Assembly (NCBI GenBank): GCA_041500865.1
Contig: JBGQMY010000022.1
Span: forward strand, 1-20,840
DNA: 20,840 nucleotides
Origin: Candidatus Micrarchaeia archaeon
GTDB taxonomy: Archaea > Micrarchaeota > Micrarchaeia > Anstonellales > J096
Direction: 5' to 3'
The translations under genes were made by a program, and so were the position numbers. Numbering within the stretch: position 1 is the first letter of the stretch; each line of letters begins with the position of its first letter. The notes under the pieces were generated by a model. That model saw only the letters and a list, made by a program, of their open reading frames with translations. It ran no database searches and was not told the origin of the DNA. This document shows, piece after piece, positions 6,706-20,840 of this stretch.

Positions 6706-7422
6706 ATGGCTTCGCTGATAGAGCTTTCGAATGTTTCCAAGTCATACGACGGGGGCAGCCCATTCCTTGCGTTGAAAGGCGCAAGCTTCAGGGTCAATGA
6801 GGGCGAATTTGTTTCAATCATAGGGCAGAGCGGAAGCGGAAAAAGCACGCTGCTCCACATATCAGGGCTGCTTGACAAGCCCAGCTCCGGCACCGTGTCC
6901 TTTGACGGAAACGTTGTGTCAAAAATGCCTGAAGACGGGCTTGCGATGATACGGAGGGACAACATAGGGTTCGTGTTCCAGGCGTTCAACCTGTCCGCGA
7001 ACATGAGCGTCTCGCGCAACGTGGAGCTGCCGCTAATGATTAAGGGCGTTCCGGCCCCGGAACGCAGGGCAAAGGTGGAGAAGACCCTTGCCATGGTCGG
7101 CATACTGGACAAGAAAGAGCGCATGCCTTCCGAGCTCAGCGGCGGGCAGAAGCAGCGCGTCGCGATAGCCAGGGCGCTTGTCACCAATCCGCGCATATTG
7201 CTTGCGGACGAACCGACGGGAAACCTTGACTCCGTAACAGGGACGGCGGTGCTTAGCTTCATATCGTCCTTGCATAAGGACCTTGGCATAACAGTCATAC
7301 TTGTGACGCACGACCATATGGTGGCGTCCCTTGCAAACCGGACCATACACATAAAGGACGGCATGATAGACAAGGACGTCACCAAGCCGCAGCGCGCAGC
7401 TGTCAATAATAAGGAGGAATGA
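6706..7422 (+). CDS. ABC transporter ATP-binding protein (LolD/MacB/SalX type)
   Basis: Walker A GQSGSGKST, IGFVFQAFNL, signature LSGGQKQRVAIARAL, ILLADEPTGNLDS, VTHD. Confidence 0.95.
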   Translation: MASLIELSNVSKSYDGGSPFLALKGASFRVNEGEFVSIIGQSGSGKSTLLHISGLLDKPSSGTVSFDGNVVSKMPEDGLAMIRRDNIGFVFQAFNLSANMSVSRNVELPLMIKGVPAPERRAKVEKTLAMVGILDKKERMPSELSGGQKQRVAIARALVTNPRILLADEPTGNLDSVTGTAVLSFISSLHKDLGITVILVTHDHMVASLANRTIHIKDGMIDKDVTKPQRAAVNNKEE

Positions 7423-9059
7423 ACAATATGAACAAAATAAAATGGTTTGCCGCATTCGCGGCGGTTTTGCTTGTCGGGCTTGCGGCTGCCGCAACCACGG
7501 CATCAACGAGCACCAGCACATCAACGGATACGGGCGGGGCCACCGTGCAGGTTTCCGGCTATTCAACGATACCGGACACCGTTTACAGCGGCTCGTACGC
7601 CCAGCTGAAGCTGGACATAGGCAACGCCGGGACAGAGACCGCGCAATCCACCACCATCTATTATTCGTACGGGACTGAGGACAATTACATGAGCGTGGGG
7701 GACATAGGCCCGGGCTCGTCCACGATAACGGCGTTGCCTTTCCACATCCCTGACGGGTATGAAGGCGGGGTTATCATCATTTATCTCAGGATATCCTGCC
7801 AGGATTCCTCAGGAATACATACTACATACGCATCCATACCGGTAAGCATATCCGGTAGGAACGACGTATCCGCCAACGTTCTGGACGCAAGCCCATCGGA
7901 AATATATCCAGGTGACTCGCTTTCGGTCAAGCTTTCGCTGAAGGACATAGGCGGGAACGACATAAGCGACGTGGCCATTGAGCCTTATCCTGATTCCGGG
8001 TTTTTCCTTAACGGGACATCCGCGATACAGCTGGGAGAAATGAAAGACGGGGAGGAACGCAACGTGTCGCTTGCGCTCGTGCTTTCATCGCCTTCCTCCT
8101 ATGGAAGGCAGATGGTGCCCATCCTTTTGACGTATGAGGACGCGCTGCACAACAGGGCGAACGAGACGGTTTATGCGGGGCCGATTGGCATAATGAGGTC
8201 CAACACAAAATGGGCCCTTTCGCTTTCTCCGGCAACGCCCGTGGAGATAGGCTCAGGGGCCGTTTTCTCCCTTTCAATCAAGAACAGGGGCGCAGACCCC
8301 GATTCCGCGGTCGTGGACATAGGCAGCGGGAACGAGTTCATGCCGCTCGGCTCGTCAAAGATATACTTTGACAACGTCGGGCCGGGCGAGACCCGCAACA
8401 CGAATGTCACAATCGGCATAAGCCCAAGCGCGGCTGCAGGATACTACGACCTGCCTGTAAGCATCCTTTCGGGAAACGACCAGTCGTGGAACGGGAGCGT
8501 GGGCGTGCTCGTACAGGCGACCCCGGAATTGACGATAAGCAACGGCCAGACGCTGACGCCTGGAAGCGAGGCCAAGGTGTCCATAAAGATAGCCAACACT
8601 GGCAACTCCGCAATACGCAGCGCGTATGTGAGCGTGGAGCCCAAGGCAAACAGCGGCCTTAGGGTCACCGCTTCAGCAACGGAGTTCATAGGCACGCTGA
8701 ACGTGGACGACTCCTACACGGCACAGCCCACGGTTTCTGCGCCTTATGCGACTGGAAGCTATCCTCTTTTGGTGACAGTGACATTCAGGGACAGCATGAA
8801 CCAAGAAAAGATTGTGACAAAGGAGCTTGATATCGTTGTAGGCAGCTCAACAGACGCTTCATCTGCCGGATCAAGCGGCAACATGAACGGCGGCCCAGGC
8901 CAGTTTAGCAGGAATTCCAGCAGCGGCATCCGGGTTTTTGGGATTGACATAATTCCCATAGCTGCGATTGCCGTTGTGCTTGGCCTGGCATACTTTGTCT
9001 GGATTAAGAAATTCAGGCGCAAAAAGGAAGATCCAAAAAAAGAGGAGCAGAGGAAATGA
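7419..9059 (+). CDS. COG1361-type S-layer-domain/CARDB-like surface protein with signal peptide and C-terminal TM anchor
   Basis: Signal peptide, Thr/Ser linker, repeated Ig-like units (L.I.N.G...A; G.YdL.V.I), C-terminal TM plus basic tail; lies between ABC ATPase and permease with ATGA overlaps. Confidence 0.8.
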   Translation: MNNMNKIKWFAAFAAVLLVGLAAAATTASTSTSTSTDTGGATVQVSGYSTIPDTVYSGSYAQLKLDIGNAGTETAQSTTIYYSYGTEDNYMSVGDIGPGSSTITALPFHIPDGYEGGVIIIYLRISCQDSSGIHTTYASIPVSISGRNDVSANVLDASPSEIYPGDSLSVKLSLKDIGGNDISDVAIEPYPDSGFFLNGTSAIQLGEMKDGEERNVSLALVLSSPSSYGRQMVPILLTYEDALHNRANETVYAGPIGIMRSNTKWALSLSPATPVEIGSGAVFSLSIKNRGADPDSAVVDIGSGNEFMPLGSSKIYFDNVGPGETRNTNVTIGISPSAAAGYYDLPVSILSGNDQSWNGSVGVLVQATPELTISNGQTLTPGSEAKVSIKIANTGNSAIRSAYVSVEPKANSGLRVTASATEFIGTLNVDDSYTAQPTVSAPYATGSYPLLVTVTFRDSMNQEKIVTKELDIVVGSSTDASSAGSSGNMNGGPGQFSRNSSSGIRVFGIDIIPIAAIAVVLGLAYFVWIKKFRRKKEDPKKEEQRK

Positions 9060-10306
9060 ACATACAGGACCTTGCGTCGATAGCCGTTGACACGCTGCGC
9101 CACAGGAGCCTGCGCAGCTGGCTTGCCATACTCGGCATCGTGATAGGCGTTGCCGCAGTCGTCACGCTGGTTGCGATAAGCTTCGGCATGAGCGACAGCA
9201 TAAGCAGCAGTCTGAACACGCTTGGCACCAACATAATCTCCATAAGCCCTGGCGGAACATCCACTGAAAGGATCGGCATGATGGCAGGAGGGGGTTTTTC
9301 GGGGGACGGGGGACCCCCGGATTCCGGTTTCCAGACCAGGCAAACAAGCACCATAACATTCACTGAGGCTGATGCTTTGCGCACGGTAGCTGGGGTGAAC
9401 TCGCTTGACGCCCAGGTCTCAGGCCGTGCCGAAGTGGAATATTCAGACATGAAGTCGTCCGTGACTGTTGTGGGGACAGAGCCGCGCGAGTTCCCGAAGA
9501 ATGTGGGCGTCAATTTAAGCGCAGGCAAGTTTCTGGGCACGGGCGACGTGTATACTGCTGTCATCGGCGCCTCAGTCGCAAACCGCACGTTCAAGGGGGC
9601 AGACATGCTAGGCAAGCAGATAAAGATAGGCGGCCTGGCGTTCAGGGTCGTGGGAATCCTGAACTCATCCGGCTCGTCCTCGTTCGGCAGCTCGGACAGC
9701 AGCGTATACATACCGCAGAAGGCCGCGAAGGCCCTGCTTAACCAGACAAAGGACGTGAGCAAGATAGTTGTTATAGTGGCAGACGGATATGGCACTGCGG
9801 CCGTTGCGAAGAGCATGACAGAGGCGCTTGAAGCGCTCCATGGGATAACCGACAGCAGCAAGGACGATTTCACTGTCACCACGGCAGAATCCATGCAGGC
9901 CACGGTTTCCGCGATGACGAGCACGCTTACGCTGTTTTTGGGCGGGATTGCGTCGGTCGCCTTGATTGTCGGCGGGATTGGCACGGCAAACACGATGTTC
10001 ATGAGCGTGCTGGAGCAGACGCGGCAAATCGGCGTCTACAAGTCCCTTGGCATGACCGGCCCGGACGTGCTGATGCTGTTCGTGATTGAGGCGTGCATAA
10101 TCGGCACCGTCGGCGGGGTTTTGGGCGTGTTCTTGAGCTTCATAATCTCATCAATTGTCACGAGCCTCGGCCTTGCGGTTAACATAACGCCCGTGCTTGC
10201 CCTTTTCGGCGTGGCGTTTTCCGCAGTCGTCGGAATAATCTCCGGGGTCATACCTGCGCGGAACGCATCGTCCATACCGCCGGTTGAGGCGCTGAGGTAT
10301 GAATGA
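9056..10306 (+). CDS. ABC transporter permease (MacB/FtsX family)
   Basis: RSWLAILGIVIGVAAVV, large extracellular loop, VGGIG.ANTMFMSVLE.TR.IG..K.LG, PARNAS...PVEALRYE. Confidence 0.95.
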   Translation: MNIQDLASIAVDTLRHRSLRSWLAILGIVIGVAAVVTLVAISFGMSDSISSSLNTLGTNIISISPGGTSTERIGMMAGGGFSGDGGPPDSGFQTRQTSTITFTEADALRTVAGVNSLDAQVSGRAEVEYSDMKSSVTVVGTEPREFPKNVGVNLSAGKFLGTGDVYTAVIGASVANRTFKGADMLGKQIKIGGLAFRVVGILNSSGSSSFGSSDSSVYIPQKAAKALLNQTKDVSKIVVIVADGYGTAAVAKSMTEALEALHGITDSSKDDFTVTTAESMQATVSAMTSTLTLFLGGIASVALIVGGIGTANTMFMSVLEQTRQIGVYKSLGMTGPDVLMLFVIEACIIGTVGGVLGVFLSFIISSIVTSLGLAVNITPVLALFGVAFSAVVGIISGVIPARNASSIPPVEALRYE

Positions 10307-10318
10307 GCGCGGATTTAA

Positions 10319-10511
10319 AATTCAGATATTCTTTTAAACAGTTTTATAAGAGATAATATTGACATGCCGGTTCTTGGGATATTTTTCGCGAAGAACAAGA
10401 ATAAATTCAATATGCAACTGCTCAAAAAGCTGGCAAAAACGTATTATGGGAAAGGAATGGCTGGGCTGGACAAAAAACGAGTTTTACGGCAAGATGGGGG
10501 AATTTGAATGA
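10319..10511 (+). pseudogene. Probable remnant of the upstream partner gene of the nucleotidyltransferase
   Basis: One frame reads DILLNSFIRDNIDMPVLGIFFAKNKNKFNMQLLKKLAKTYY; the +1 frame ends GWTKNEFYGKMGEFE* with an ATGA overlap onto the next start (10508). Reads like a 5'-truncated, frameshifted C-terminus; family match is from memory only. Confidence 0.4.
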
Positions 10512-11260
10512 CAGAAAAATTCACGAAGGGCGATTTGGAAGGCGAATTCGGAAAGATAGGGGGAAGAATACGGGGAAAGGTTGAGGTTTTCCTGCTGGGG
10601 GGCGGCGCCATGTGCTTCCGCAACCAGAAGAACGCAACAAAGGAATTGGATTTGGTGTTCAGGGATGCAAATGGCCTCAATGCCTTCGTAAAGGCGATAG
10701 CCAAGTTAGGCTTTTCCGAGCCAAAAAGGATAGAAACGGAATATGCGGAGATGAAAGCCTCCGGAATCTGGAAAAACAGGGATGGCTTAAGGCTGGATTT
10801 GTTTGTCGGCAAGGTCTGCGGGGTGCTTGAGCTTTCAGAATGGATGGCGTCCCGTTCAGAACTGCTTGGAACCTACGGGAATATGGCAGTGAAGATGGTT
10901 TCAAACGAGGATGTGATCCTTTTCAAAGGCATAACTGAAAGGGCTGACGACGCAGATGACATTGCGGCGATAATCCGCACTTCAAGGATAAAATGGGACG
11001 TTGTGCTTGCGGAATGCGCCGCCCAAAGCGAGGCAAAGGCGTGGTATGTCGCGCTTTACAACAAATTGGTTGAATTGGAGGAGATGCACAAGATAACCGT
11101 TCCGATAGCAAGGAGGCTGAAAAAGCTGGACAGTGCGGCGATACTGAAGGAAGCTTATGCAACCCGCATCAACAGGGGATTAAGCCGCAAGTCTGCAGTT
11201 GAAGAGCTTATTAAAATCGGATTTACGAAAGAAGAGATAGGGAAAGCGATAAAGGAATAG
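10508..11260 (+). CDS. DUF6036/AbiEii-like nucleotidyltransferase
   Basis: VFLLGGGAM...K.ATKELDLV, RLDLF, S.ED..LFK.IT.R..D.DD motifs of the Pol-beta-superfamily nucleotidyltransferases. Confidence 0.8.
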   Translation: MTEKFTKGDLEGEFGKIGGRIRGKVEVFLLGGGAMCFRNQKNATKELDLVFRDANGLNAFVKAIAKLGFSEPKRIETEYAEMKASGIWKNRDGLRLDLFVGKVCGVLELSEWMASRSELLGTYGNMAVKMVSNEDVILFKGITERADDADDIAAIIRTSRIKWDVVLAECAAQSEAKAWYVALYNKLVELEEMHKITVPIARRLKKLDSAAILKEAYATRINRGLSRKSAVEELIKIGFTKEEIGKAIKE

Positions 11261-11299
11261 GCAAGCCCCAATCTCCCCACTTTCTAAATGGGCCACGGC

Positions 11300-11386
11300 T
11301 CACTTCTTCTTTTGGGGAAGCCTCTTTCTCGGCAACCCGAACAGGTCGTACAGCTTGGTTCTTATCTTTATTTCCGGAAGTTTCAT
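11300..11386 (-). CDS. Putative 28-aa basic peptide
   Basis: Manual translation MKLPEIKIRTKLYDLFGLPRKRLPQKKK*; starts 4 nt after the stop of 11391-11693 with SD-like GAGTGA. Confidence 0.4.
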   Translation of the reverse strand: MKLPEIKIRTKLYDLFGLPRKRLPQKKK

Positions 11387-11390
11387 GTCA

Positions 11391-11693
11391 TCACTCTTTT
11401 GTTGTTCCCCTTTCTATCAGCCCTTTCAGGGTCGGGCGCAACAGCAGCCCCTGGACGAATGCGCCTATGAAATTCGTTTCAAACAGGATGCTCAACAAGC
11501 CCCCGATGAAACAGAAGAACAGCACATAATGGATTTTTTCCAGGTAAGGATTTTCTATGTTCTCCGATGTTTCCTCTATCTTCACAAAACCGGATTTTAC
11601 CACGGCAAAATAAGTGAGGGCGCCTATCGCTCCGAGCACGAACCTAAAAACCACTATTGAATTTGCCAGTATATATTGGCTAATGGCATCCAT
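11391..11693 (-). CDS. Small hypothetical membrane protein (about 3 TM)
   Basis: Hydrophobic G-rich helices; AT-rich; TATA-like TTTATAAA about 25 nt upstream on the minus strand. Confidence 0.7.
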   Translation of the reverse strand: MDAISQYILANSIVVFRFVLGAIGALTYFAVVKSGFVKIEETSENIENPYLEKIHYVLFFCFIGGLLSILFETNFIGAFVQGLLLRPTLKGLIERGTTKE

Positions 11694-11806
11694 TGTATCT
11701 TATTTTTCATTCGGGTAGTTTATAAATATTCCTGTTTCTGGAAAAGGACGCGCTCAGGCAAAGGCCCAACGAACCTTTAAAACCCTTATACTTTCTATAA
11801 AGGGGC

Positions 11807-13414
11807 ATGGAGCCAAATCCCCAAGACCCCCCGAGAGACATGAACAAGGATTTCAGGGAGCACTCAGTAGCGGAATTCTTCAAGAAAAACAAGCACATGC
11901 TCGGCTTCTCAGGAAAGACAAGGAGCCTCACCACTATCATTCACGAATACATGACAAACTCGCTTGACGCATGCGACGAGCACGGCATACTCCCGAACAT
12001 CAGGATAGAGGTAACGGAAATGGGGGAAGAACGGTACAGGGTCGTTGTTTCTGACAATGGCCCCGGCATGCCGAAATCCATCATCGGCAAGGCGCTGGGC
12101 AAGATGCTGGCAGGGACAAAATTCCACCGCTACATGCAGCAAAGGGGCCAGCAGGGCATCGGCGCAACAGGATGCACGATGTACGCGCAGATAACGACCG
12201 GAAAAGCCGTCCATGTCCTATCGGCGCATAAGGGCAAGGCCATATCCTGCGACGTTAAAGTGGACTTGAAAACCAACGAACCGATAATAGAGAACATGGC
12301 GGAGCAGGACGCGTCATACAGCGGGCTCACGGTGGAGGCGGAGTTCGGCGAAGTCAAGTTCGACAAGGGCGCATACGGCGTCCTGGAATACGTCAAAAGG
12401 ACCGCGATAGCGAACCCGCATGCGCAGATTGAGCTGATAGCGCCGGGAAACGAGGTTTACAGGTTCGCAAGGTCCGTTGACGCTGCCCCGAAAAGGCCGA
12501 AGGAGGTACAGCCGCATCCGCTTGGCATAAGCACTTACGATTTGCAGGCGATGGCGCACGGCGCAAAGGAAGCGAAGCTTTCGGCGTTCCTTACTGAAAA
12601 TTTCACCAGGTTTTCCGCGCAGAAGGTGCAGGAGCTTAAGGGACTGACTGACATTGACTTCAGCAAGAGCCCAAAGGAACTGTCATGGGAAGAATCAGAG
12701 AAGCTGGTCAATGCCATCCAGAAGCTGAAATGGATAGCCCCTCCATTGGACTCTGTCATACCGATAGGCAAGGAGCAGATAGAAAAGAGCATGAAGAACG
12801 TGCTTGAGCCGGAGTTCGTGAACGTCGTTGAACGGAACATACAGATATATTCGGGCGGCATACCATATGCAGTGGAGGTCGGCATAGCGTTCGGCGGCAA
12901 AATCAACGAGAAAAAGGGCGAGATATACAGGTATGCGAACCGAACCCCGCTCATGTTCGACGCATCAGGATGCGCAATCGTCGAATCGGTAAAGGAGATA
13001 GACTGGAAGAGGTACGGCATTGACATGGAGAACGACCCTGCCGTGATTTTGGTTAACGTGTCAAGCGTGCACATACCCTACGTCGGGGCAGGCAAGCAGG
13101 CCATATCCGACATAGATGAGGTAAAACAAGAGATAAAGAACGCGATAATGGAGTGCGCAAGGGGCATCAAGATGAGCCTCGGAAGGAAGAGAAAGGCCGG
13201 CGACATGGAAAAAAGGAAGACTGCGCTGATGAGATACATCAAAAGGCTCAGCGAGGACCTGGCAAACCTCTCAGAGGAAAGCAGCAAGGCCGAGCTGGAA
13301 AGGAAGCTTACGCATATCATAGAGACGAAATATGCGGCGGATATGGACGAAGAAGAGGAAAAGCCCGCAGAAAAGAGCGGAGGGGAGGAGAATGGCAACG
13401 GAGAAGAGGAGTGA
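11807..13414 (+). CDS. top6B: DNA topoisomerase VI subunit B
   Basis: SVAEFFKKN, GHKL motifs EYMTNSLDAC / SDNGPG / RGQQGIG, NPHA, PHP.G, RYANRTPL. Confidence 0.97.
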   Translation: MEPNPQDPPRDMNKDFREHSVAEFFKKNKHMLGFSGKTRSLTTIIHEYMTNSLDACDEHGILPNIRIEVTEMGEERYRVVVSDNGPGMPKSIIGKALGKMLAGTKFHRYMQQRGQQGIGATGCTMYAQITTGKAVHVLSAHKGKAISCDVKVDLKTNEPIIENMAEQDASYSGLTVEAEFGEVKFDKGAYGVLEYVKRTAIANPHAQIELIAPGNEVYRFARSVDAAPKRPKEVQPHPLGISTYDLQAMAHGAKEAKLSAFLTENFTRFSAQKVQELKGLTDIDFSKSPKELSWEESEKLVNAIQKLKWIAPPLDSVIPIGKEQIEKSMKNVLEPEFVNVVERNIQIYSGGIPYAVEVGIAFGGKINEKKGEIYRYANRTPLMFDASGCAIVESVKEIDWKRYGIDMENDPAVILVNVSSVHIPYVGAGKQAISDIDEVKQEIKNAIMECARGIKMSLGRKRKAGDMEKRKTALMRYIKRLSEDLANLSEESSKAELERKLTHIIETKYAADMDEEEEKPAEKSGGEENGNGEEE

Positions 13415-14519
13415 AAAAAGGAACGAGGACCAAAAGGCCTACGATAACCTCGTAAACCTTGGAAAGGACATGGTCAGCGAGGTCGACAGGGACACCACGC
13501 CTACTTTTGAGACTTCGTTAAGAGGCAAAAGCAACATACTTTTCGACAGCAAAGACGGATACCTGAAACTGGGCGACAAGACTGAAACAAGGAAGTTCAT
13601 GAATTTAGGGCAGGCAAGGACATTCATGCAGACGATAAGCATTGCAAACAAATTGAAGCAGTTTATACGCGAAGGCCTGCACACCAGCATCAGGGGCCTT
13701 TATTACCAGATGAAGTTCAGCTTGGGCGACGACTTAGATGAAAGCCTGTTTGAGGAACAGAGCGAGTCAAACGTGCTTGTTGAGGATTTGGAGGTCGCGA
13801 TAGGCGCGAAAAGGGAGGACTTTCATTTAACGACAGACAGGAAGGGCGTGCTGGCCGGAAACATAAAGCTGATTGACAGGTTCGGCGGCGAGGAGATAAC
13901 GATAGACGGGACGAAGCAGGGAAGGAGCGGCTGGATGATTCCGAGCGACGTGGACAACGGCATGGAAATAGAAAGCGTGAAGGCGGACTACGTGCTTGTA
14001 GTTGAAAAGGACGCGCTCTGGCAAAGGCTCAACGAGGACAGGTTCTGGCAGAAGGAAAAGGCCATACTCATAACGCCAAAAGGCCAGAGCTCAAGGGGAA
14101 CAAGAAGATTGATACGGAAGCTGGCTGACAAGGGACTGCCGGTTTACGTCTTCACGGACTGCGACGCCTGGGGATGGTACATCTACTGGACTTTGAAAAC
14201 AGGCTCGATGAATCTTGCGTATTTGGGAAAGGAGTTCAGCATACCGAATTCACGGTTTATAGGCGTGACGATGAGCGACATTGACCGTTACGAGTTTTTG
14301 CAGAAATTGACAATAAACGCAAAGGAGCTGGACATCAAGAGGGCAAAGGAGATGATGGAGTATCCCTGGATAGCCAAGCATCCTGAGTGGGTAAAGGAGC
14401 TGAAGAAGGTCCTGGACACGAAGAAGAAGATAGAGCAGGACGCTTTGCAGGGGCAAAGATTGACGTTCGTCAGCGAGTACGTCAGGGACAAGATAGAGCA
14501 CAACGAAGTTTTACCGTAG
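13392..14519 (+). CDS. top6A: DNA topoisomerase VI subunit A (Spo11 family)
   Basis: Catalytic RGLYY, F.EQ.ES...VEDLE, Toprim VVEKDA and DCDAWG, K.EQDA; start ATG 13392 after GGAGGAG, 23-nt overlap with top6B. Confidence 0.97.
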   Translation: MATEKRSEKRNEDQKAYDNLVNLGKDMVSEVDRDTTPTFETSLRGKSNILFDSKDGYLKLGDKTETRKFMNLGQARTFMQTISIANKLKQFIREGLHTSIRGLYYQMKFSLGDDLDESLFEEQSESNVLVEDLEVAIGAKREDFHLTTDRKGVLAGNIKLIDRFGGEEITIDGTKQGRSGWMIPSDVDNGMEIESVKADYVLVVEKDALWQRLNEDRFWQKEKAILITPKGQSSRGTRRLIRKLADKGLPVYVFTDCDAWGWYIYWTLKTGSMNLAYLGKEFSIPNSRFIGVTMSDIDRYEFLQKLTINAKELDIKRAKEMMEYPWIAKHPEWVKELKKVLDTKKKIEQDALQGQRLTFVSEYVRDKIEHNEVLP

Positions 14520-14539
14520 ATTCAGCTCCTGCGGCGCTA

Positions 14540-14562
14540 TTTTTAATTCCTTTGGCGCACAA
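14540..14562 (+). promoter_or_regulatory. Conserved TATA-like + TTTGGCGCACAA element, copy 2
   Basis: TTTTTAA-TTCC-TTTGGCGCACAA-TGAATCT-ATG(14570). Confidence 0.7.
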
Positions 14563-14569
14563 TGAATCT

Positions 14570-15346
14570 ATGCAGAAAAATCGGCTCCAAAGAAATATGC
14601 GGGCAAAGGAACAAGCTCAAATCAAAGTTGGCATTATCCCAAGCGGTAAGCTGGCAGCATTGCCAGCAAGTAAACAAAAACAATTCAATGATATGCTTAT
14701 CCATGCAGCCTTCAATGGCGACAATGACGAAATAAGGCGGCTCATCAAGGCAGGCGCAAACATAATGGCAACAGATGAGTGCGGAGAGACAGCCCTGCAT
14801 AACGCTGCATGTATGGGATATATAGAAACCTGCGCCATGATTATATCTGAATACGCAAATTCGGTCGGAGACGTAAAGAAACTGATTGCCGCAAAGAATC
14901 ATAAAGAAGATGAAAACGATGAAGAAGAAGAGGATGGAGGCAATACTGCCCTGCATATAGCTGCATATAACGGATACGTTAAGGTATGCAGACTGCTCAT
15001 AGATGAATACGCAAAAGCAGGGGGAAACGTAAAGAAACTGATTGCCAAAACGAATGATGGATTTTCAACAGCCCTTCACGATGCCGCAACCAACGTCAAC
15101 AGACCCAACAGCGAATCTAAAATTTGCGCTTTGCTGATTGAGAAGTATGCAGAAGCAGGCGGCGAGGTAAGAAAGCTCATTGCCATAAAGGATGTATGGG
15201 GAAGGACAGCCCAGCAAAGAGCTGATGGAAATGAATGCATTAAAACGGCTAAGTTCCTAAAATCAATAAAAAAATTAATAAGAATAATGGAAAAGGAGGC
15301 ATTGGGTTCATTTATGAAGTCTTTCACCGAGTGTGTTGCCGCCTAA
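14570..15346 (+). CDS. Ankyrin-repeat protein (258 aa)
   Basis: LIHAAFNG...LIKAGANI, GETALHNAA.MG, GNTALHIAAYNG, STALHDAA, GRTA; start set at 14570 by the upstream element and to avoid overlapping top6A. Confidence 0.9.
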   Translation: MQKNRLQRNMRAKEQAQIKVGIIPSGKLAALPASKQKQFNDMLIHAAFNGDNDEIRRLIKAGANIMATDECGETALHNAACMGYIETCAMIISEYANSVGDVKKLIAAKNHKEDENDEEEEDGGNTALHIAAYNGYVKVCRLLIDEYAKAGGNVKKLIAKTNDGFSTALHDAATNVNRPNSESKICALLIEKYAEAGGEVRKLIAIKDVWGRTAQQRADGNECIKTAKFLKSIKKLIRIMEKEALGSFMKSFTECVAA

Positions 15347-15347
15347 C

Positions 15348-15845
15348 TTATAGACCAACGCATTCCGAGAAGCTGGGCAGGAAATATTTGAATTGTTCCC
15401 TGCCAGTCAGCCACGACAGGAGCCCTGCATAAAAAAGGAAATCCGCTGTTTTTTGGCATTCTCCTGAACGTCTGCCATAGCCCATTCCTGATTTGGCAAA
15501 TCTTAGCGCAGAGTTACCGGAGTCACTTTTTTCATCCAGGTTTGCGCCGTTTGCAAGCAGGAATACGCATACATCGGTGCGCCCGTAAAATGCGGCCATC
15601 ATAAGCGGCGTTATGCCAACAAAGGCATTTATGTTGACATTGGCGCCGGCTGAGACAAGCTCTTTTATGCGTTCCCAATCTCCAGATTGGGGATCGTTGT
15701 TGAACTTAGACTTTATCATGCCGGCAAGCTCTTGATTAAGCCTGATCTCTGATACCGCGCGTTCCGGGCTAAGCTTTTTCAGCAATAGGATTGATTTTTT
15801 TGCAATGCTCTTGGCCCTTTCGCGGAACGTCCTGCGCTCTGCCAT
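15348..15845 (-). CDS. Ankyrin-repeat protein (165 aa)
   Basis: LVSAGANVN, GITPLMMAAFYGRTDVCVFLLANGANLD, GNSALRFA; convergent with the previous gene, stops 1 nt apart. Confidence 0.9.
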   Translation of the reverse strand: MAERRTFRERAKSIAKKSILLLKKLSPERAVSEIRLNQELAGMIKSKFNNDPQSGDWERIKELVSAGANVNINAFVGITPLMMAAFYGRTDVCVFLLANGANLDEKSDSGNSALRFAKSGMGYGRRSGECQKTADFLFYAGLLSWLTGREQFKYFLPSFSECVGL

Positions 15846-15853
15846 GCCTCCTT

Positions 15854-15876
15854 TTGTGCGGCAAACAGGTTAAAAA
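15854..15876 (-). promoter_or_regulatory. Conserved TATA-like + TTTGCCGCACAA element, copy 3
   Basis: Minus strand TTTTTAA-CCTG-TTTGCCGCACAA-AAGGAGGC-ATG(15845). Confidence 0.7.
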
Positions 15877-15947
15877 TAGTGACCGTAGACGCCCTTGGCA
15901 CCCACGTCCCAAGCGGGTTAAAAGGCTTTTGATGCAACAGGGAAGCA

Positions 15948-17222
15948 ATGGAAGAGAACCCGAAGCAGGACATAGCCTTGATACCGTCGCACGCGCTTAT
16001 AGAGCACGCCACAGCGAGGCTTGGGCAGGGCGCCCAGCTCAAGGAGCTGAAGGAGCTCAGGGACGAGATGGTAAGGCGCGGGTTCGTACACCCGTTTGCG
16101 CACATGGCAAGGATTCCGGGCGATGCGGAAAAGAGGGAACAGGAAGACATAAAGAAGCACATGGACCATTTCATGAGGATGGCTGTGCTTAAGAAGTACA
16201 CGCTTGTCAAGACGCAGGCGATGATAGCCGAAAATGCGCTCAAAAAGGCGCTGGCAAGGAACGGCTATACCGACCTGATTGCGCACATGCCGAGGAACGG
16301 CGATTACATAGGCGAGCTGATAATACACGGCAACGGCGCAGTAAAGGCGTACAAGGAGCTTGACGGATACCTGTCAAAGTCCGGCCATACCGAGGAAAGG
16401 CACTATGTCGAGGTTGAAGAGCTTGGCATGGTGTACACTAAAAAGGGAAAGACAAGGGAGGAGGCGATGGCAGGCCTCCCAAACGAAGCGATAATCAAGA
16501 AATCTGGAAAGACGAAAAAGAGGTTCCCGATAATCAGGAGCAAGATGATAAGGAAGCTGCTGTGCGCGTCCGTAGCCTGCTATGTTTCCGATTTGGCGAT
16601 AGGCCAGTTCAACGCAGGGAAGATAAGGGAATACAACAAGGCGCTGCTGGAGCTGGGCATAGCGCCGTTCAGCAGGCTGGACTATGCAGAGGGATTCGAG
16701 AAGGAGAAGAGGGAGCTTGCAAAGAAGGGATACATGGAAAGCGACGGAGAGGCGTTCAAGACCAGGAAGGAGTGGGTTGAGGAAATATACAGGACAAGGG
16801 ACGGCATGAACAAGTGGATAATGAGGAACGCCGCTGCGATGCTCTTCACGCCCATAATGAAATACTATTTGCTGAACAACAGGACGCAAAGGGAAAGGGG
16901 CCTCGTGTTCCCGACGCTTGCCCCGATGCCCAGCGAGGAGCAGGTTGCGGTCTTCGTGTACCTGAGGAGCCTGCTCGGGATAGACGCATACAGCGTCATA
17001 AGGAGAAAGCTGCAGTTTGAGAATGTCATGGAGTCGGGGGAATTGGCTGCAGGGCTTCTTGCCATATACGGGACAAAGGAGATAGCGTCAAAAATGACTG
17101 GCATGGACGAAGCCGGCGTAAGCAAGGCAGAGGCAAGCGTAAAGGCAATCATGGAGGGCGGAAAGGGGCATGAGTTCGCGGCATACCTTGGAGATAAGGG
17201 GGACAAGGAAGGCAATAGCTGA
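15948..17222 (+). CDS. Conserved archaeal protein, DUF530-like
   Basis: L.ELRDEM.RRGF..PF, F...A.LKK.TL, P..GDY, P..KYYL, FP.L...P resemble DUF530 proteins as I recall them; genome-typical codon usage. Confidence 0.6.
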   Translation: MEENPKQDIALIPSHALIEHATARLGQGAQLKELKELRDEMVRRGFVHPFAHMARIPGDAEKREQEDIKKHMDHFMRMAVLKKYTLVKTQAMIAENALKKALARNGYTDLIAHMPRNGDYIGELIIHGNGAVKAYKELDGYLSKSGHTEERHYVEVEELGMVYTKKGKTREEAMAGLPNEAIIKKSGKTKKRFPIIRSKMIRKLLCASVACYVSDLAIGQFNAGKIREYNKALLELGIAPFSRLDYAEGFEKEKRELAKKGYMESDGEAFKTRKEWVEEIYRTRDGMNKWIMRNAAAMLFTPIMKYYLLNNRTQRERGLVFPTLAPMPSEEQVAVFVYLRSLLGIDAYSVIRRKLQFENVMESGELAAGLLAIYGTKEIASKMTGMDEAGVSKAEASVKAIMEGGKGHEFAAYLGDKGDKEGNS

Positions 17223-17550
17223 ATTGTTAACGCCCAATCCGGAGATAACGGATGTCATGCTTTACGCGAAGCCATCAAAGAGGATGCTCTTTGCCATGCT
17301 GAACGCGCTGCCGAACCTCAAGAGGATAACGGTTGGAAAGGGAATAGCAAGGCAGATATCAAAGAGGCAGATGGAAGCGCTGGACAAGGTGGGCATAGAG
17401 GTAATTCTGGAGGACAGGAAACGCGGAAGGAAGCCAATGTTCTCAGCAGAGCAAAGAAAAGCCATAATGGAAGAATTCGCAAGGGACCCGTCCTCCATGG
17501 CAAAGTACGGGATAGGCAGAAGGGCGGTCTATTACTGGATGAAAAAGTAA
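17170..17550 (+). CDS. DUF1699-like protein with C-terminal HTH
   Basis: PNLKRI.....A.Q.SK....AL...GIEV...RGRKP.F followed by HTH-like YGIGRRAVYYW; overlaps the upstream gene (start 17170 ATG or 17188 TTG). Confidence 0.65.
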   Translation: MSSRHTLEIRGTRKAIAELLTPNPEITDVMLYAKPSKRMLFAMLNALPNLKRITVGKGIARQISKRQMEALDKVGIEVILEDRKRGRKPMFSAEQRKAIMEEFARDPSSMAKYGIGRRAVYYWMKK

Positions 17551-19971
17551 TCAGCCAATCTGCGCATTGGGCGCATAAATCCTTATTTTCGCGTCCATTG
17601 CCTTGTAGTATGCGTCGCTGGCGCAGCCCCCGCAAGCGTCTATCGCGCCCATGTAGGCTGAAAGCACCTGCGTGCCATACTGTATCTTCGGGTATGCGCC
17701 CTTCACCTTTGAGTAGAACGTGACTGGGTCCATTTTTGCGTTTCCGCAGACGCCATACTGGTTCTTGTAGTTCCATTTCTTGTTGTCGTAGCTGCAGCAC
17801 AGGGACTGGCCGATGCTGTTCATCTTGCCGCAGTCGCTGCCCTTGTCCACGTTGGGCCTGAAGCTGCTCCAAAGCGGGACGTATGTGTCAGACCCGCTGC
17901 TTATTGGGTTCCCGTAATAGCGCTCTGCAGTGAACTCAACTGTCAGGGCGTCCCTGAGGTTCTGGTTGTCTGCATCTGAAAATGACGAGACGTTGAATAT
18001 GTCGCGGTTGTTGGACACCGCGGAAGACGCATCAGGAAGGAACTGCCACGCTATCTTATAGGCTGCTGCGCAGATGCTGTGGCTGGCATTGAACGGGTTG
18101 AAGCTGGCGCCGCCGCATGCCTTCACCTCCGGAGGCATCGCAAGGCCGCGCTGCGCATACATGGCGCCTGGCAAATCAGTGGTCTGCATCATGCCGCTCG
18201 CGCAGATGGTGTACTGCGGCTGGGGCGCGCCTGGCTGCCGGCTGTTGTCATAAGGCGGGTCAGGCATGGAATTTACGTCGCACCCTGCCTGGCCTGCTGC
18301 GTCCACAATGTCGGACTTGTGTACGACTATCCCTGTGCACTTGGATGCGTCGCTTGCATTAAGGTATGAGATGGCGCAGTGGTCAAAACCGGATTCCTGC
18401 TGCGCGATGGCCCTCAGAAGGTTTGAGTCTATGTCGTAAAGCTCGCCGTAGAACTCCATCCTGCGTATGGCGTCATCGGGCTTGGTGCAGTGCGAGCTGT
18501 CAAAGCTGCCCTTGATGCCCTTGAGGAAGGGCGGCGTGTCCTTTGAGTCGTAGATGAGGAAGCATGCCTTGCACCTGTACGTCTGGTCTTCCTTGTTCCC
18601 GTAGTTCACGTCGGCAAGGGGCACGTAGTCGCCCGTGCTCTGCCTTCCCCCGTACGTCATCGTCTTCTCCGGAATGAAGTCAAGGACCCCGCACTTGTCC
18701 CCCAACGGCGAAGTGTCAATCGCAAAAAGCTGGAAGTTCCTGTTTCCGTAGTAGTTTTGGCACAAGGAGAACCACGTGGACGAGGCGCTCTGCCTCAGCG
18801 ACGGGCTTGACAAATCCGGGTTCATGAACGACATGTTTTCAACGGGCTCGAAGAACGCGTCTGAATAGAACGGCTCGGGGGACATGCCAAGCACGCCGTT
18901 TTTGGACATTTCTGGTATGTCGTTGAACATCAGCCAGAAAATCTTGCGCTCCTCGAAGTCGCTCCACCTGCACGCGCTCCTGTTGATGTTTACGTAATAC
19001 CAGAAGGTCGGCTTGCCGTACTTCGCCCTTATCGCAGTGCTCGCCTCCTCTGCCAGGCCCTCAAGATGGTCTCCTGAGCCGCAGTTCGTGTCGTTGTTGT
19101 CAACAAGGTAGTCGCTGTCGATGCCGAAGCCGACGAAATCAACGTACTGCAGCGAGTCGTAGCCCGATTCATTCAGCGCATTGAGCATCTTGGTGCCGTT
19201 GGGCCCGTTCCTTATGGACAATCCGACCATGCAGTTCGGGCAGTTGAGCCTTATCTCCCTTATCTCGTTGTTTATCTTCCCTATGTTGCCGTCGCTTGAC
19301 TGGGGGTTCATCTCAGTCGCTATCATCACGGGGCCCAAACCTGACATCTGGCTTGCGAAGTCCGCAGCGTTCTCCTGGTCTGGGACTGTGCCGTTGTTGT
19401 AGAGTATGTAGAGCGGAATCACGCTCTTGTCAAGGAAGCACGCCGCTCCGGAATACGACTTCGGCGAAAATGAGTATTTCACTCCGTCAAGGGAGCGGAC
19501 CAGCTTGACCGCATACCTGAGCGAATTGTTGCAGTACGGGTTGGCGTCGTTGAAGTCCGCAAAGCTCATGCCCTGGCCTATGCCGAACTCGCGCGCATAG
19601 TAGACGCCCTTGCTTAGGTTGGTCATGGTATCGTTCTTGTTCTCGTTCGTGACGTTCTGGAGCCAGCAGCTGCCGCCGATGAGCGAGGGGTCCATCCATT
19701 GCCAGTAGCGAGCGCTGTAGTACATGAACTTTACCCACTTGCTGAAAGAGGACGTGGCCTTTGAGGCGTTCTGGCACACCAGTATGCTGCAGCTTCCCTG
19801 GCTGAGGTAGGCGTCCAGCTTCGCCTTGTCCACGCTCATGTTCGGATTCATGATGGTGTTGCTGTCTATAAGATACTGATTCGTGCTTGAGGCTATCATG
19901 CTTTGCGTGCATCCTGAAAGCAGCGCCAAGGAAATTATGACTGTCAATGCCAAAACCTGTGCCTTATCCAT
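17551..19971 (-). CDS. Large Cys-rich lipoprotein with putative glycoside-hydrolase-like TIM barrel and SLT/GH23 lytic transglycosylase domain
   Basis: Signal MDKAQVLALTVIISLALLSG|C (lipobox); SLT motifs YDIDSNLLRAIAQQESGF, ASGMMQ, NPFNASHSICAAA; many N-x-S/T sequons. Start 19971 after TGAGGT, or 19986 by ATGA overlap. Confidence 0.8.
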   Translation of the reverse strand: MDKAQVLALTVIISLALLSGCTQSMIASSTNQYLIDSNTIMNPNMSVDKAKLDAYLSQGSCSILVCQNASKATSSFSKWVKFMYYSARYWQWMDPSLIGGSCWLQNVTNENKNDTMTNLSKGVYYAREFGIGQGMSFADFNDANPYCNNSLRYAVKLVRSLDGVKYSFSPKSYSGAACFLDKSVIPLYILYNNGTVPDQENAADFASQMSGLGPVMIATEMNPQSSDGNIGKINNEIREIRLNCPNCMVGLSIRNGPNGTKMLNALNESGYDSLQYVDFVGFGIDSDYLVDNNDTNCGSGDHLEGLAEEASTAIRAKYGKPTFWYYVNINRSACRWSDFEERKIFWLMFNDIPEMSKNGVLGMSPEPFYSDAFFEPVENMSFMNPDLSSPSLRQSASSTWFSLCQNYYGNRNFQLFAIDTSPLGDKCGVLDFIPEKTMTYGGRQSTGDYVPLADVNYGNKEDQTYRCKACFLIYDSKDTPPFLKGIKGSFDSSHCTKPDDAIRRMEFYGELYDIDSNLLRAIAQQESGFDHCAISYLNASDASKCTGIVVHKSDIVDAAGQAGCDVNSMPDPPYDNSRQPGAPQPQYTICASGMMQTTDLPGAMYAQRGLAMPPEVKACGGASFNPFNASHSICAAAYKIAWQFLPDASSAVSNNRDIFNVSSFSDADNQNLRDALTVEFTAERYYGNPISSGSDTYVPLWSSFRPNVDKGSDCGKMNSIGQSLCCSYDNKKWNYKNQYGVCGNAKMDPVTFYSKVKGAYPKIQYGTQVLSAYMGAIDACGGCASDAYYKAMDAKIRIYAPNAQIG

Positions 19972-19982
19972 TGTCAAAAACC

Positions 19983-20840
19983 TCATTTGTACTCTACGCC
20001 GCATTGCGTGCATGAGCCTGCCCCCCTTCTCACAAGGCTGCCGCACTGGCTGCATTTCATCATGTAGTTGGTTCCGCCTAGCGTTACTGCCGCTATGTTC
20101 AGCGGCGCTGAAAGCGTACTTGCAAAGAAGTTTGCGGTCGCGCCCCCTACTTTTTTGGCAAAACGCTTTGGCGCTGCTTCTGGCCGTCCGGTCAGCGGGT
20201 CTATCGGTCCTTCCTCCTCCATAGCGTCCCTGGCTCTGTCGTATATGTTGTTCAATCCCCTTTCCACTGTGCTGGACAGGAAGTTTGTTGCTATGAGCGG
20301 GTTTATCATTATGCCCATTGCGTGCCTTGACGGCGAATAGTACGAAAGCTCCTGCTCCCTCTTGAAATAGTCGTCCACAATCGTGGTGTGCCTCTTCCTT
20401 ATGCTTAACGACGCATACGCAAGGTCGTCCTTGTCGGCCATGTTCATGGAGCTGGTCTTAGGCTCCTTGAAAACCCATTGGTCTCTGCCCGGATCCTCGT
20501 TCCGCTTCCATTCCTGTGTCTTGAACTCATAAAGGTTGTAGACCTTCCATTGCTGGGCCGGCTCCACGACGTGCCTGCCCGTGCCCCATTGGAAATGCTC
20601 CCTGCCAGGTATGTCCGCAGGCGTGCCGAACTCGTTTGAGTACCAGTAGAAGTGCGATGAGACTCTCCTTGCGAGATGTGTTTCCTCCTTGTCGGCTATC
20701 GCGCTCCCCTCATTGGGGTTTGTGGAAGCTATCCAGTTTCCGACAGGCTCCATCCTCTTCTTTGACCAGGACCAGACGTTCGCCCCTCCTAACCTCTTCC
20801 ACAGGTCAATTCCTTCTGAAGTGTCTGAGTCTGTCTTGAA
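19983..20840 (-). CDS. Partial CDS (5' end outside window), hypothetical protein with C-terminal zinc ribbon
   Basis: Frame stays open from 20753 to the window edge (FKTDSDTSEGIDLWKRLGGANVWSWSKKR precedes the listed Met); ends CSQCG-x8-CTQCG; tightly coupled to the SLT lipoprotein gene. Confidence 0.8.
   Translation of the reverse strand, partial: FKTDSDTSEGIDLWKRLGGANVWSWSKKRMEPVGNWIASTNPNEGSAIADKEETHLARRVSSHFYWYSNEFGTPADIPGREHFQWGTGRHVVEPAQQWKVYNLYEFKTQEWKRNEDPGRDQWVFKEPKTSSMNMADKDDLAYASLSIRKRHTTIVDDYFKREQELSYYSPSRHAMGIMINPLIATNFLSSTVERGLNNIYDRARDAMEEEGPIDPLTGRPEAAPKRFAKKVGGATANFFASTLSAPLNIAAVTLGGTNYMMKCSQCGSLVRRGAGSCTQCGVEYK

Follow-up and report, generated by a model that had tools for sequence, protein, structure and literature searches.

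What would a cell that is not known to make peptidoglycan do with a surface protein built like the enzymes that cut it? The question is raised by a lipoprotein gene near the end of a 20,840-nucleotide stretch of DNA from a Candidatus Micrarchaeia archaeon of the order Anstonellales (here referred to as the window, i.e., the whole of contig C22 of a 1.04-Mb genome that is 92% complete). The encoded protein combines a barrel that resembles glycosidases with a lysozyme-fold domain of the SLT type (glycoside hydrolase (GH) family 23). Because the gene belongs to the regular complement of its order and to a conserved gene set for a putative membrane machine, and is missing from the related order with archaeal hosts, we regard the protein as a testable clue that Anstonellales cells, tiny and of symbiotic type, act on bacteria. 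In the best explanation, to which we assign a probability of roughly 0.45, the lipoprotein would assist a contact machine by opening a wall, with the peptidoglycan of another cell as its target.

The two domains of the lipoprotein

The open reading frame (ORF) that begins at 19971 (17551-19971, minus strand) encodes 806 amino acids (aa), and residue numbers count from this start. A start 15 bases upstream, at 19986, is likelier; there the ATG shares bases with the TGA of the preceding gene, and the product predicted in the database (P0002) has the corresponding length of 811 aa. The lipobox LSGC, the segment AIAQQESGF with the codon of Glu526, GMMQ, NPFN (residues 625-628), HSICAAA (residues 631-637), 27 Cys residues and the barrel strands PLYILY, PVMIATE, VDFVGFG, YGKPTFWYY and GVLG, all listed by a sequence-only reading of this DNA, are present where that reading placed them (Table 1).

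Table 1. Coordinates, in the window, of the lipoprotein gene, its parts and its neighbours
Feature	Position	Strand	Basis or remark
Lipoprotein gene	17551..19986	minus	811 aa from 19986; 806 aa from 19971
Signal peptide ending in lipobox LSGC (residues 18-21)	19909..19971	minus	Cys21 at 19909-19911
N-terminal segment, residues 22-124	19600..19908	minus	conserved Cys61, Cys66 and Cys102; low pLDDT
(beta/alpha)8 barrel resembling clan GH-A glycosidases, residues ~125-410	18742..19599	minus	predicted structure
Glu220, end of barrel strand 4 (acid/base slot)	19312..19314	minus	alignment and strand order of the model
Tyr326, barrel strand 7, clan GH-A nucleophile slot	18994..18996	minus	alignment; register from GH-A motif
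Cys-containing linker, residues 411-485	18517..18741	minus	alignment and model
Lysozyme-fold SLT/GH23-like domain with large Cys-rich insertions, residues ~486-786	17614..18516	minus	model
SLT motif I AIAQQESGF, residues 521-529	18385..18411	minus	Glu526 = GAA at 18394-18396, then Ser527
Motif II GMMQ (GLMQ type), residues 593-596	18184..18195	minus	alignment
Degenerate AYNxG equivalent (A682...Y686-G687)	17911..17928	minus	alignment
Tyr773, conserved Tyr of the last helix	17653..17655	minus	alignment
Giant partner gene, 3' end	19983..20840	minus	C-terminal zinc ribbon; cut by contig end; stop overlaps lipoprotein start
Two convergent neighbours (DUF530-like, 424 aa; DUF1699/helix-turn-helix-like, 126 aa)	15948..17550	plus	each in 22/31 loci
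Topoisomerase VI B and A genes	11807..14519	plus	archaeal chromosomal context, recurrent neighbours

Conservation was read from an alignment of 136 proteins, which comprises the query, 10 of the 11 matches of a first search (the window's own protein excluded) and 125 of 148 further listed representatives; the 23 representatives shorter than 600 aa were excluded, and two doubtful members were retained. Gly20 is found in 120 and Cys21 in 125 of these proteins, which is consistent with lipid anchoring at Cys21. The 806-aa protein holds 15 sequons in addition to its Cys residues. Its Cys content is 3.35%, compared with a median of 0.95% for 228 long ORFs of the genome (a mechanical set that includes false frames), and exceeds that of 93% of them; the sequon density, 1.86 per 100 aa compared with 0.45, exceeds that of 89%. 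A second match of the family profile in the same genome spans the signal region only. A scan for promoters and terminators, with a bacterial promoter model, gave results at chance level.

The Pfam SLT profile (PF01464) matches this protein at residues 510-539, i.e., at motif I only (E value 5.5e-4, 19.9 bits, cut-off 21.3); in the genome search the match, again to motif I only, scores 22.6 bits against the same cut-off, and 8 of 11 close family members are also matched. Because structural comparison of a full-length model (11 sequences, predicted local distance difference test (pLDDT) score 62) listed barrels only, the SLT half was refolded alone. The model of residues 486-806, based on 94 sequences, has a pLDDT of 94.1 and a predicted template-modelling score of 0.89, and adopts the lysozyme-like fold anticipated from the motifs. 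Compared with 48,161 solved chains, it matches best MltC (Z 11.2, root-mean-square deviation (rmsd) 3.9, 151 residues aligned), followed by MltE (Z 10.9), MltF (Z 10.9) and a Neisseria-type lytic transglycosylase (Z 10.8), such that the four best matches are all lytic transglycosylases; a goose-type lysozyme (Z 10.0) and Slt70 (Z 9.9) rank further down. Sequence identity to the lytic transglycosylases is 13-17%. Foldseek also ranks MltE first for the SLT model (E value 0.012), while at an E value of 0.001 or below it found no match for the full-length or the SLT model among PDB or viral structures. Language-model features suggest SLT clusters (0.93-0.94). A cephalosporin acylase match from a single-sequence search of solved structures was weak and was dismissed as chance.

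The residues follow the fold. Motif I aligns with that of MltC and EtgA, and Glu526 is present in 113 of the 136 relatives, Ser or Thr527 in 120, Gly593 in 131, Gln596 in 102 and Tyr773 (which we take to be motif IV) in 123; all five occur together in 87. In the segment corresponding to AYNxG, Ala is found in 86, Tyr in 103 and Gly in 106 relatives, the Asn is mostly missing, and two relatives have a canonical segment (AYNAG or SYNAG). Glu-Ser, GLMQ and AYNxG are given as motifs of family-1 lytic transglycosylases in PMC550655. By predicted fold and conserved residues, the C-terminal domain is thus a heavily expanded, family-1-like lytic transglycosylase, in which Glu526 would cleave peptidoglycan. 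When shorter versions of this half were sought, one fragment cut by a contig end was found. Two genomes, G073 and G093, have secreted paralogs of the SLT half that stand alone, away from the conserved gene set (L113:5621-6889 and L114:5104-6147); in these, Glu-Ser and GLMQ are intact.

The second glycosidase-like domain proposed in the sequence-only reading is seen in the full-length model, parts of which have a pLDDT below 50, as eight strands with helices at residues ~125-410. The best match is the GH53 galactanase 6gp5 (Z 14.3, rmsd 4.5, 237 residues aligned), with GH5, GH26, GH10, GH39 and GH1 enzymes within 1 Z unit; identity to these clan GH-A enzymes is 6-13%, and no Pfam GH family is matched by the barrel of the window protein or of close family members. 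In clan GH-A the acid/base Glu ends strand 4 and the nucleophile Glu ends strand 7. Here, Glu220 follows the strand of residues 216-218 and is assigned to the end of strand 4 by strand count (Glu in 124/136). Strand 7 (KPTFWYY, residues 322-328) has no acidic residue in this protein, and position 326 is Tyr in 129 and Glu in none of the 136 proteins, with the register of Tyr326 in the nucleophile slot taken from a GH-A sequence motif rather than from residue-level superposition. Because Tyr and never Glu occupies that slot, the predicted barrel is not a standard clan GH-A glycosidase, and the glycosidase assignment holds for the fold but not for the usual nucleophile. In substrate-assisted N-acetylhexosaminidases (GH18, GH20, GH25 and GH56) a lone strand-4 Glu acts together with a conserved Tyr, and by analogy the lone Glu220 with its conserved Tyr would fit an N-acetylated glycan substrate. 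A role of the barrel in binding only is as possible.

These observations also bear on whether the protein is an enzyme at all. Both domains could be enzyme-derived lectins of a non-catalytic adhesin that recognises the surface of a partner, consistent with the missing GH-A nucleophile in all 136 proteins and with the loss of Glu526 in 23 of them, including whole clades with Asp or Asn at this position. We consider this improbable, since Glu526 is retained in the other 113 at identities of mostly 21-32%, together with the Ser, the GLMQ-type motif and the last Tyr, all of which the present copy has. Of the earlier proposal the anatomy stands for this copy (a lipoprotein with a barrel and an SLT domain, an intact Glu526 and many Cys), while in several lineages the SLT half is degenerate or absent.

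Range and inheritance of the gene

The family is found in 165 of the 176 genomes of the order, which is named here after relatives labelled Ca. Micrarchaeota and Ca. Anstonellales, in 61 of the 63 high-quality ones and in 161 of 401 genomes sampled across the phylum. Its members are 600-1,100 aa long, the longest among 150 listed relatives being 1,094 aa. Because the gene is carried by nearly the whole order and a quick tree of 40 members tracks genus and family labels, the gene is old and vertically inherited, and is neither a chimera nor a recent import. A swap of this copy between families was also considered and is not borne out by the tree. Viral contigs yielded no relative (109 pattern matches, none confirmed).

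That the gene is an artefact, i.e., a chimeric contig, a contaminant or a recent phage or bacterial insert, is hardly credible. Its position near a contig end and the lack of an exact overlap between C22 and C30, the contig with the rest of the adjacent gene, would allow it. The range within the order already refutes it, and the vertical tree, the same neighbours in independent genomes and a GC content like that of the rest also speak against it. A single record, from a run that may have yielded this very DNA, extends from 11000 to 20840 with uniform depth; coverage by runs X2 and X3 is confined to short pieces. The locus is thus not chimeric, an eventuality that the sequence-only reading had raised.

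Within the phylum sample the family profile has no match in family f13 (0/94), f14 (0/83), f15 (0/9), f16 (0/7) or f17 (0/21), while the same profile detects remote families at an E value of 1e-29 or better. The order of Ca. Micrarchaeum A_DKE, reached with the published ARMAN probe (PMC8975820, PMC5468238), probably corresponds to f13 and f14. The profile has no match in the complete A_DKE genome, in four other ARMAN-probe-positive genomes or in 151 genomes from that order. The host of A_DKE is a Thermoplasmatales archaeon, according to PMC8975820. Genome tallies of ordinary SLT genes and arrays, and probably also the phylum and A_DKE-order counts, include genomes flagged as unpublished (G472, G306 and G195), and none of the statements made here depends on these genomes by themselves.

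The absence from the order with an established archaeal host favours the preferred reading over one in which the same machine acts on an archaeal glycan, where the protein would cut or loosen host pseudomurein, methanochondroitin, S-layer N-glycans or matrix polysaccharide, or the cell's own envelope during assembly of the machine. We consider this alternative unlikely, although several observations favour it. All named Micrarchaeota hosts are archaeal, as far as PMC12892359 describes them; lysozyme-fold enzymes with other substrates rank close to the top matches; the large insertions reshape the SLT domain, of whose 321 modelled residues only ~150 can be aligned; no lineage has given up the barrel, whereas some have lost the SLT domain; and near-universal retention as a single copy suits a housekeeping role in the envelope. 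On the other side stand the nearest structural matches, which are murein lytic transglycosylases, the motif set shared by 87 of 136 relatives and the 151 genomes in which the family was not found. The bacterial wall target proposed from the sequence gains from this lineage pattern, while the fold does not single out that substrate, as it also serves GH23 chitinases and GH124 cellulases.

Ordinary SLT genes occur in A_DKE's order as well. Seven small ones that were inspected (L086-L092) have scattered contexts, and four of the seven adjoin the same neighbour gene, which suggests a lineage-fixed position. In genomes G531, G455, G522 and G544 of that order SLT matches lie within open frames of 1,900-2,700 codons that may encode tape-measure-like or fam00969-like proteins.

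The gene neighbourhood and the proposed contact machine

The upstream gene encodes a giant protein with a signal peptide and a membrane anchor, ~1,900 aa in a genome of the same genus and 1,500-1,900 aa overall. In this assembly the gene is split, with its 5' part on contig C30 and its 3' part on C22. Of 17 long loci, 15 have the lipoprotein gene directly behind this gene, and the two are adjacent in 105 of 113 genomes among those with both matches listed. Their family-level ranges are nearly equal, where the giant protein is found in 170 of 401 genomes, with 1/94 in f13 and 3/83 in f14 (all weak) and 7/9 in f15 (weak).

The two genes are also linked, less tightly, to an array of six paralogous membrane-protein genes, which stands beside the giant gene in 5 of 17 long loci and within 14 kb of the lipoprotein gene in 29 of the 66 genomes listed. 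Such arrays are broader in range (351/401 phylum genomes, A_DKE included), and this genome has two, at C1:6767-14363 (L094) and C16:12000-19464 (L097), of which the C16 array is far more diverged. In FastTree phylogenies with long branches the giant-linked paralogs form six ortholog groups, each with one gene of the C1 array, and none of 22 rows from five ARMAN-probe-positive genomes falls within these groups. An initial view, that the enzyme alone is missing from A_DKE and the array is shared, was therefore revised, as the array genes of A_DKE lie outside the six groups. In A_DKE the array is of a paralogous, other type and abuts an operon for an ATPase, which is orthologous to an operon in this genome (ATPase 52% identical). 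Here the operon (C1:79970-86063; L095:7970-14063) has five genes, which encode a protein with two transmembrane segments, a VirB4/CedB-like ATPase, a small transmembrane protein and proteins of 232 and 829 aa; the gene order is the same in genome G148 and largely the same in A_DKE. In G148, one of the 17 long loci, the operon adjoins the lipoprotein gene. Another giant ORF, with 2,051 codons or more, lies on contig C16 (L097:11731-17883), where the contig end cuts it; it is divergent from a helix-turn-helix gene and is not matched by the giant partner proteins.

In the preferred reading, the lipoprotein would be exported and then anchored to the surface by lipid at Cys21. Braced by disulfides, it would cut glycans in the manner of VirB1, though in the wall of another cell. 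The barrel would bind, and perhaps cut, an N-acetylated glycan with Glu220 alone, by substrate-assisted chemistry, while the SLT domain would cut glycan strands of bacterial peptidoglycan by means of Glu526. The protein would be made together with the giant membrane protein and belong with one of the two six-paralog arrays, which probably work with the VirB4/CedB-like ATPase. Bacteria that serve Anstonellales-type Micrarchaeota as hosts or prey would be the target. In a Patescibacterium a pair of wall hydrolases encoded beside virB4 is essential for epibiotic growth (PMC12102498), and cryo-tomography of Microcaldus revealed a barrel-shaped envelope complex, unassigned in that report, at contact tubes (PMC11329633).

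The same anatomy would serve a stand-alone surface lysin or scavenger that breaks the walls of living or dead bacteria to feed or to defend the cell, where the neighbourhood is inherited gene order and no physical partnership exists. A lipoprotein anchor and two glycan-active folds require no machine, the biosynthetic capacity of Anstonellales is sizeable (PMC12892359), free SLT-half copies exist away from the gene set (G073 and G093) and the array is often unlinked. We regard this as quite unlikely given the start/stop overlap with the giant gene, an adjacency that persists while other neighbours vary, and the matching ranges of the two proteins.

Several observations weigh against a wall-opening accessory of a contact machine. 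As regards the machine, array and lipoprotein gene are unlinked in 37 of the 66 listed genomes and in this assembly. The ATPase resembles CedB (E value 6.5e-23, 81 bits compared with a cut-off of 700) and VirB4, in both cases below the cut-off, and hidden Markov models of CedA and TrbL have no match in this genome. The protein in the VirB6 position of plasmid R388 ranked first of 140 plasmid ORFs at an E value of 0.074 and was unranked by hhalign; neither plasmids nor the sequences of solved structures gave a match to the array profile, and its 12 matches are only Micrarchaeota-labelled or unnamed proteins. As CedA is VirB6-like and its detection needed profile comparison (PMC9905601), blank CedA and VirB6 searches are expected, yet they provide no support, and a type IV secretion ancestry of array and ATPase is weakly suggested. 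The VirB1-like role proposed earlier thus gains from the gene context and loses from the weak VirB6/CedA identity of the array. A complex predicted for residues 21-480 with the outer domain of the giant protein scored 0.00 in a run without controls, which is evidence neither way. As regards the target, searches of the genome, which is 92% complete, found neither a LysM nor a PG_binding_1 gene, the absence from A_DKE's order may reflect a single loss with another cause, and an SLT gene alone is no marker of a bacterial host because 16 of the 151 genomes of that order hold other, ordinary SLT genes. As regards the enzyme, the AYNxG motif is degenerate, a GH124 cellulase (Z 8.5) and a GH23 chitinase (Z 8.2) are among the structural matches of the SLT model, and two inspected giant-adjacent members (G144 and G174) have no SLT domain. 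Together with the relatives that lack Glu526, these two members identify the barrel, not the SLT domain, as the constant part of the family.

Barrel-only forms stand behind giant genes at L115:16005-17474 (489 aa) and L118:4019-5371 (450 aa), the L115 copy without Glu220 and Tyr326. In two families the order is array, a 920-aa gene (presumably tRNA ligase-like, judged by a sequence motif), giant gene and barrel.

The two convergent DUF530-like and DUF1699/helix-turn-helix-like neighbours are conserved in position and are probably outside the module. Between topoisomerase VI A and the DUF530-like gene, two convergent ankyrin-repeat genes (14387-15845) occupy the patch of lowest GC content (0.44); they are absent at this spot in relatives, and numerous loose read ends and a joint suggest an insert that is variable and rich in repeats. 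Positions 6706-10306 hold one operon with an ABC ATPase, a CARDB/NEW3 surface protein and a MacB/FtsX-like permease, and a DUF6036 nucleotidyltransferase-like gene (10508-11260) lies in a lower-GC patch before topoisomerase VI B.

For Anstonellales no host is known, and the literature found contains no DPANN archaeon shown to live on a bacterium. Earlier hints of bacterial targets rested on scattered, easily annotated SLT genes, while this family sits below annotation thresholds; near-universal in one order, and not found among the genomes sampled from the order that has archaeal hosts, it yields a concrete prediction of host range. The theme is already in print, and a cryptic core gene whose lineage pattern tracks host type makes the open question testable. 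The family also links an enzyme of guessable function to an anonymous set of envelope genes, which may be how these cells touch their partners. A bolder proposal, which we consider doubtful, is that Anstonellales, together with several sister lineages that make up much of Micrarchaeota, live on bacteria as epibionts or predators and are equipped with an eight-gene wall-opening module of a domesticated conjugation-type machine (six VirB6/CedA-like membrane paralogs, the giant membrane protein and the two-domain lipoprotein). The order with archaeal hosts would have retained the motor and a second array but lack precisely this module, and the barrel would represent a glycosidase family not described before, in which one Glu stands with an invariant Tyr.

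Comparison with known systems

From the above discussion, the closest relatives by fold are the family-1 lytic transglycosylases (GH23/PF01464; E. coli MltC, MltE and Slt70, P. aeruginosa MltF), with Z scores of 9.9-11.2, Glu followed by Ser and a GLMQ-type motif in common. The Mlt enzymes are lipoprotein-anchored, as is predicted here. In contrast to these enzymes, the present domain is about twice as long owing to Cys-rich insertions, shares only 13-17% identity, has a degenerate AYNxG motif and a sub-cut-off Pfam score. It also follows a barrel within one polypeptide, and the cell that encodes it is not known to make peptidoglycan. The barrel shares with clan GH-A (GH53, GH5, GH26, GH10, GH39 and GH1) the (beta/alpha)8 architecture and the conserved strand-4 Glu, and departs from it in the strand-7 Tyr, the identity of 6-13% and the lack of a Pfam GH match.

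The VirB1-type hydrolases of type IV secretion systems, i.e., the two-domain forms of monoderms and the virB4-linked ones of Patescibacteria (PMC12102498), likewise join an SLT domain to a second hydrolase-type domain, and the lipoprotein gene resembles theirs in being encoded with candidate membrane-machine genes. Here, however, the second domain is a glycosidase-type barrel rather than a peptidase, and the wall that would be cut cannot be the cell's own peptidoglycan. Similarity to the VirB1 of R388 extends over 22 columns of motif I only (probability 0.3%); the SLT profile did not single out this VirB1 among the 140 plasmid ORFs, i.e., the scan is insensitive.

Among DPANN archaea, murein transglycosylases have been reported in three Micrarchaeota genomes, with attack on bacteria inferred (PMC5864196), in Pace- and Woesearchaeota (fam00969 in PMC8204110, Woesearchaeota GH23 in PMC9723730; also PMC11537232) and as GH23 in one Norongarragalinales genome (PMC8561730). 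Because such enzymes, Micrarchaeota included, were published with the same inference (PMC5864196, PMC8204110, PMC9723730), the surprise implied by the sequence-only reading is smaller than it seemed. Common to all is an extracellular SLT/GH23 domain in a small archaeon with a bacterial target inferred. As described in these sources, the published enzymes either are large, reaching 3,000 aa, or occur sporadically, and ordinary annotation sufficed to detect them. The present family, compared with them by description only, is 600-1,100 aa long, cryptic and near-universal in its order; its SLT domain is joined to a barrel, and its gene keeps a fixed partner. No description of the barrel-SLT fusion, its partner or its range was found in the literature, where supplementary family tables (PMC8204110, PMC12892359) may list it.

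A precedent for activity is provided by secreted archaeal enzymes with peptidoglycan-active domains, which can kill bacteria (PMC12352652). According to that report, these hydrolases are modular with a peptidoglycan-binding domain and patchy in distribution (~5% of genomes), and the ones studied are M23 peptidases; in contrast, the Anstonellales lipoprotein has no recognised binding domain and is encoded by a vertically kept core gene.

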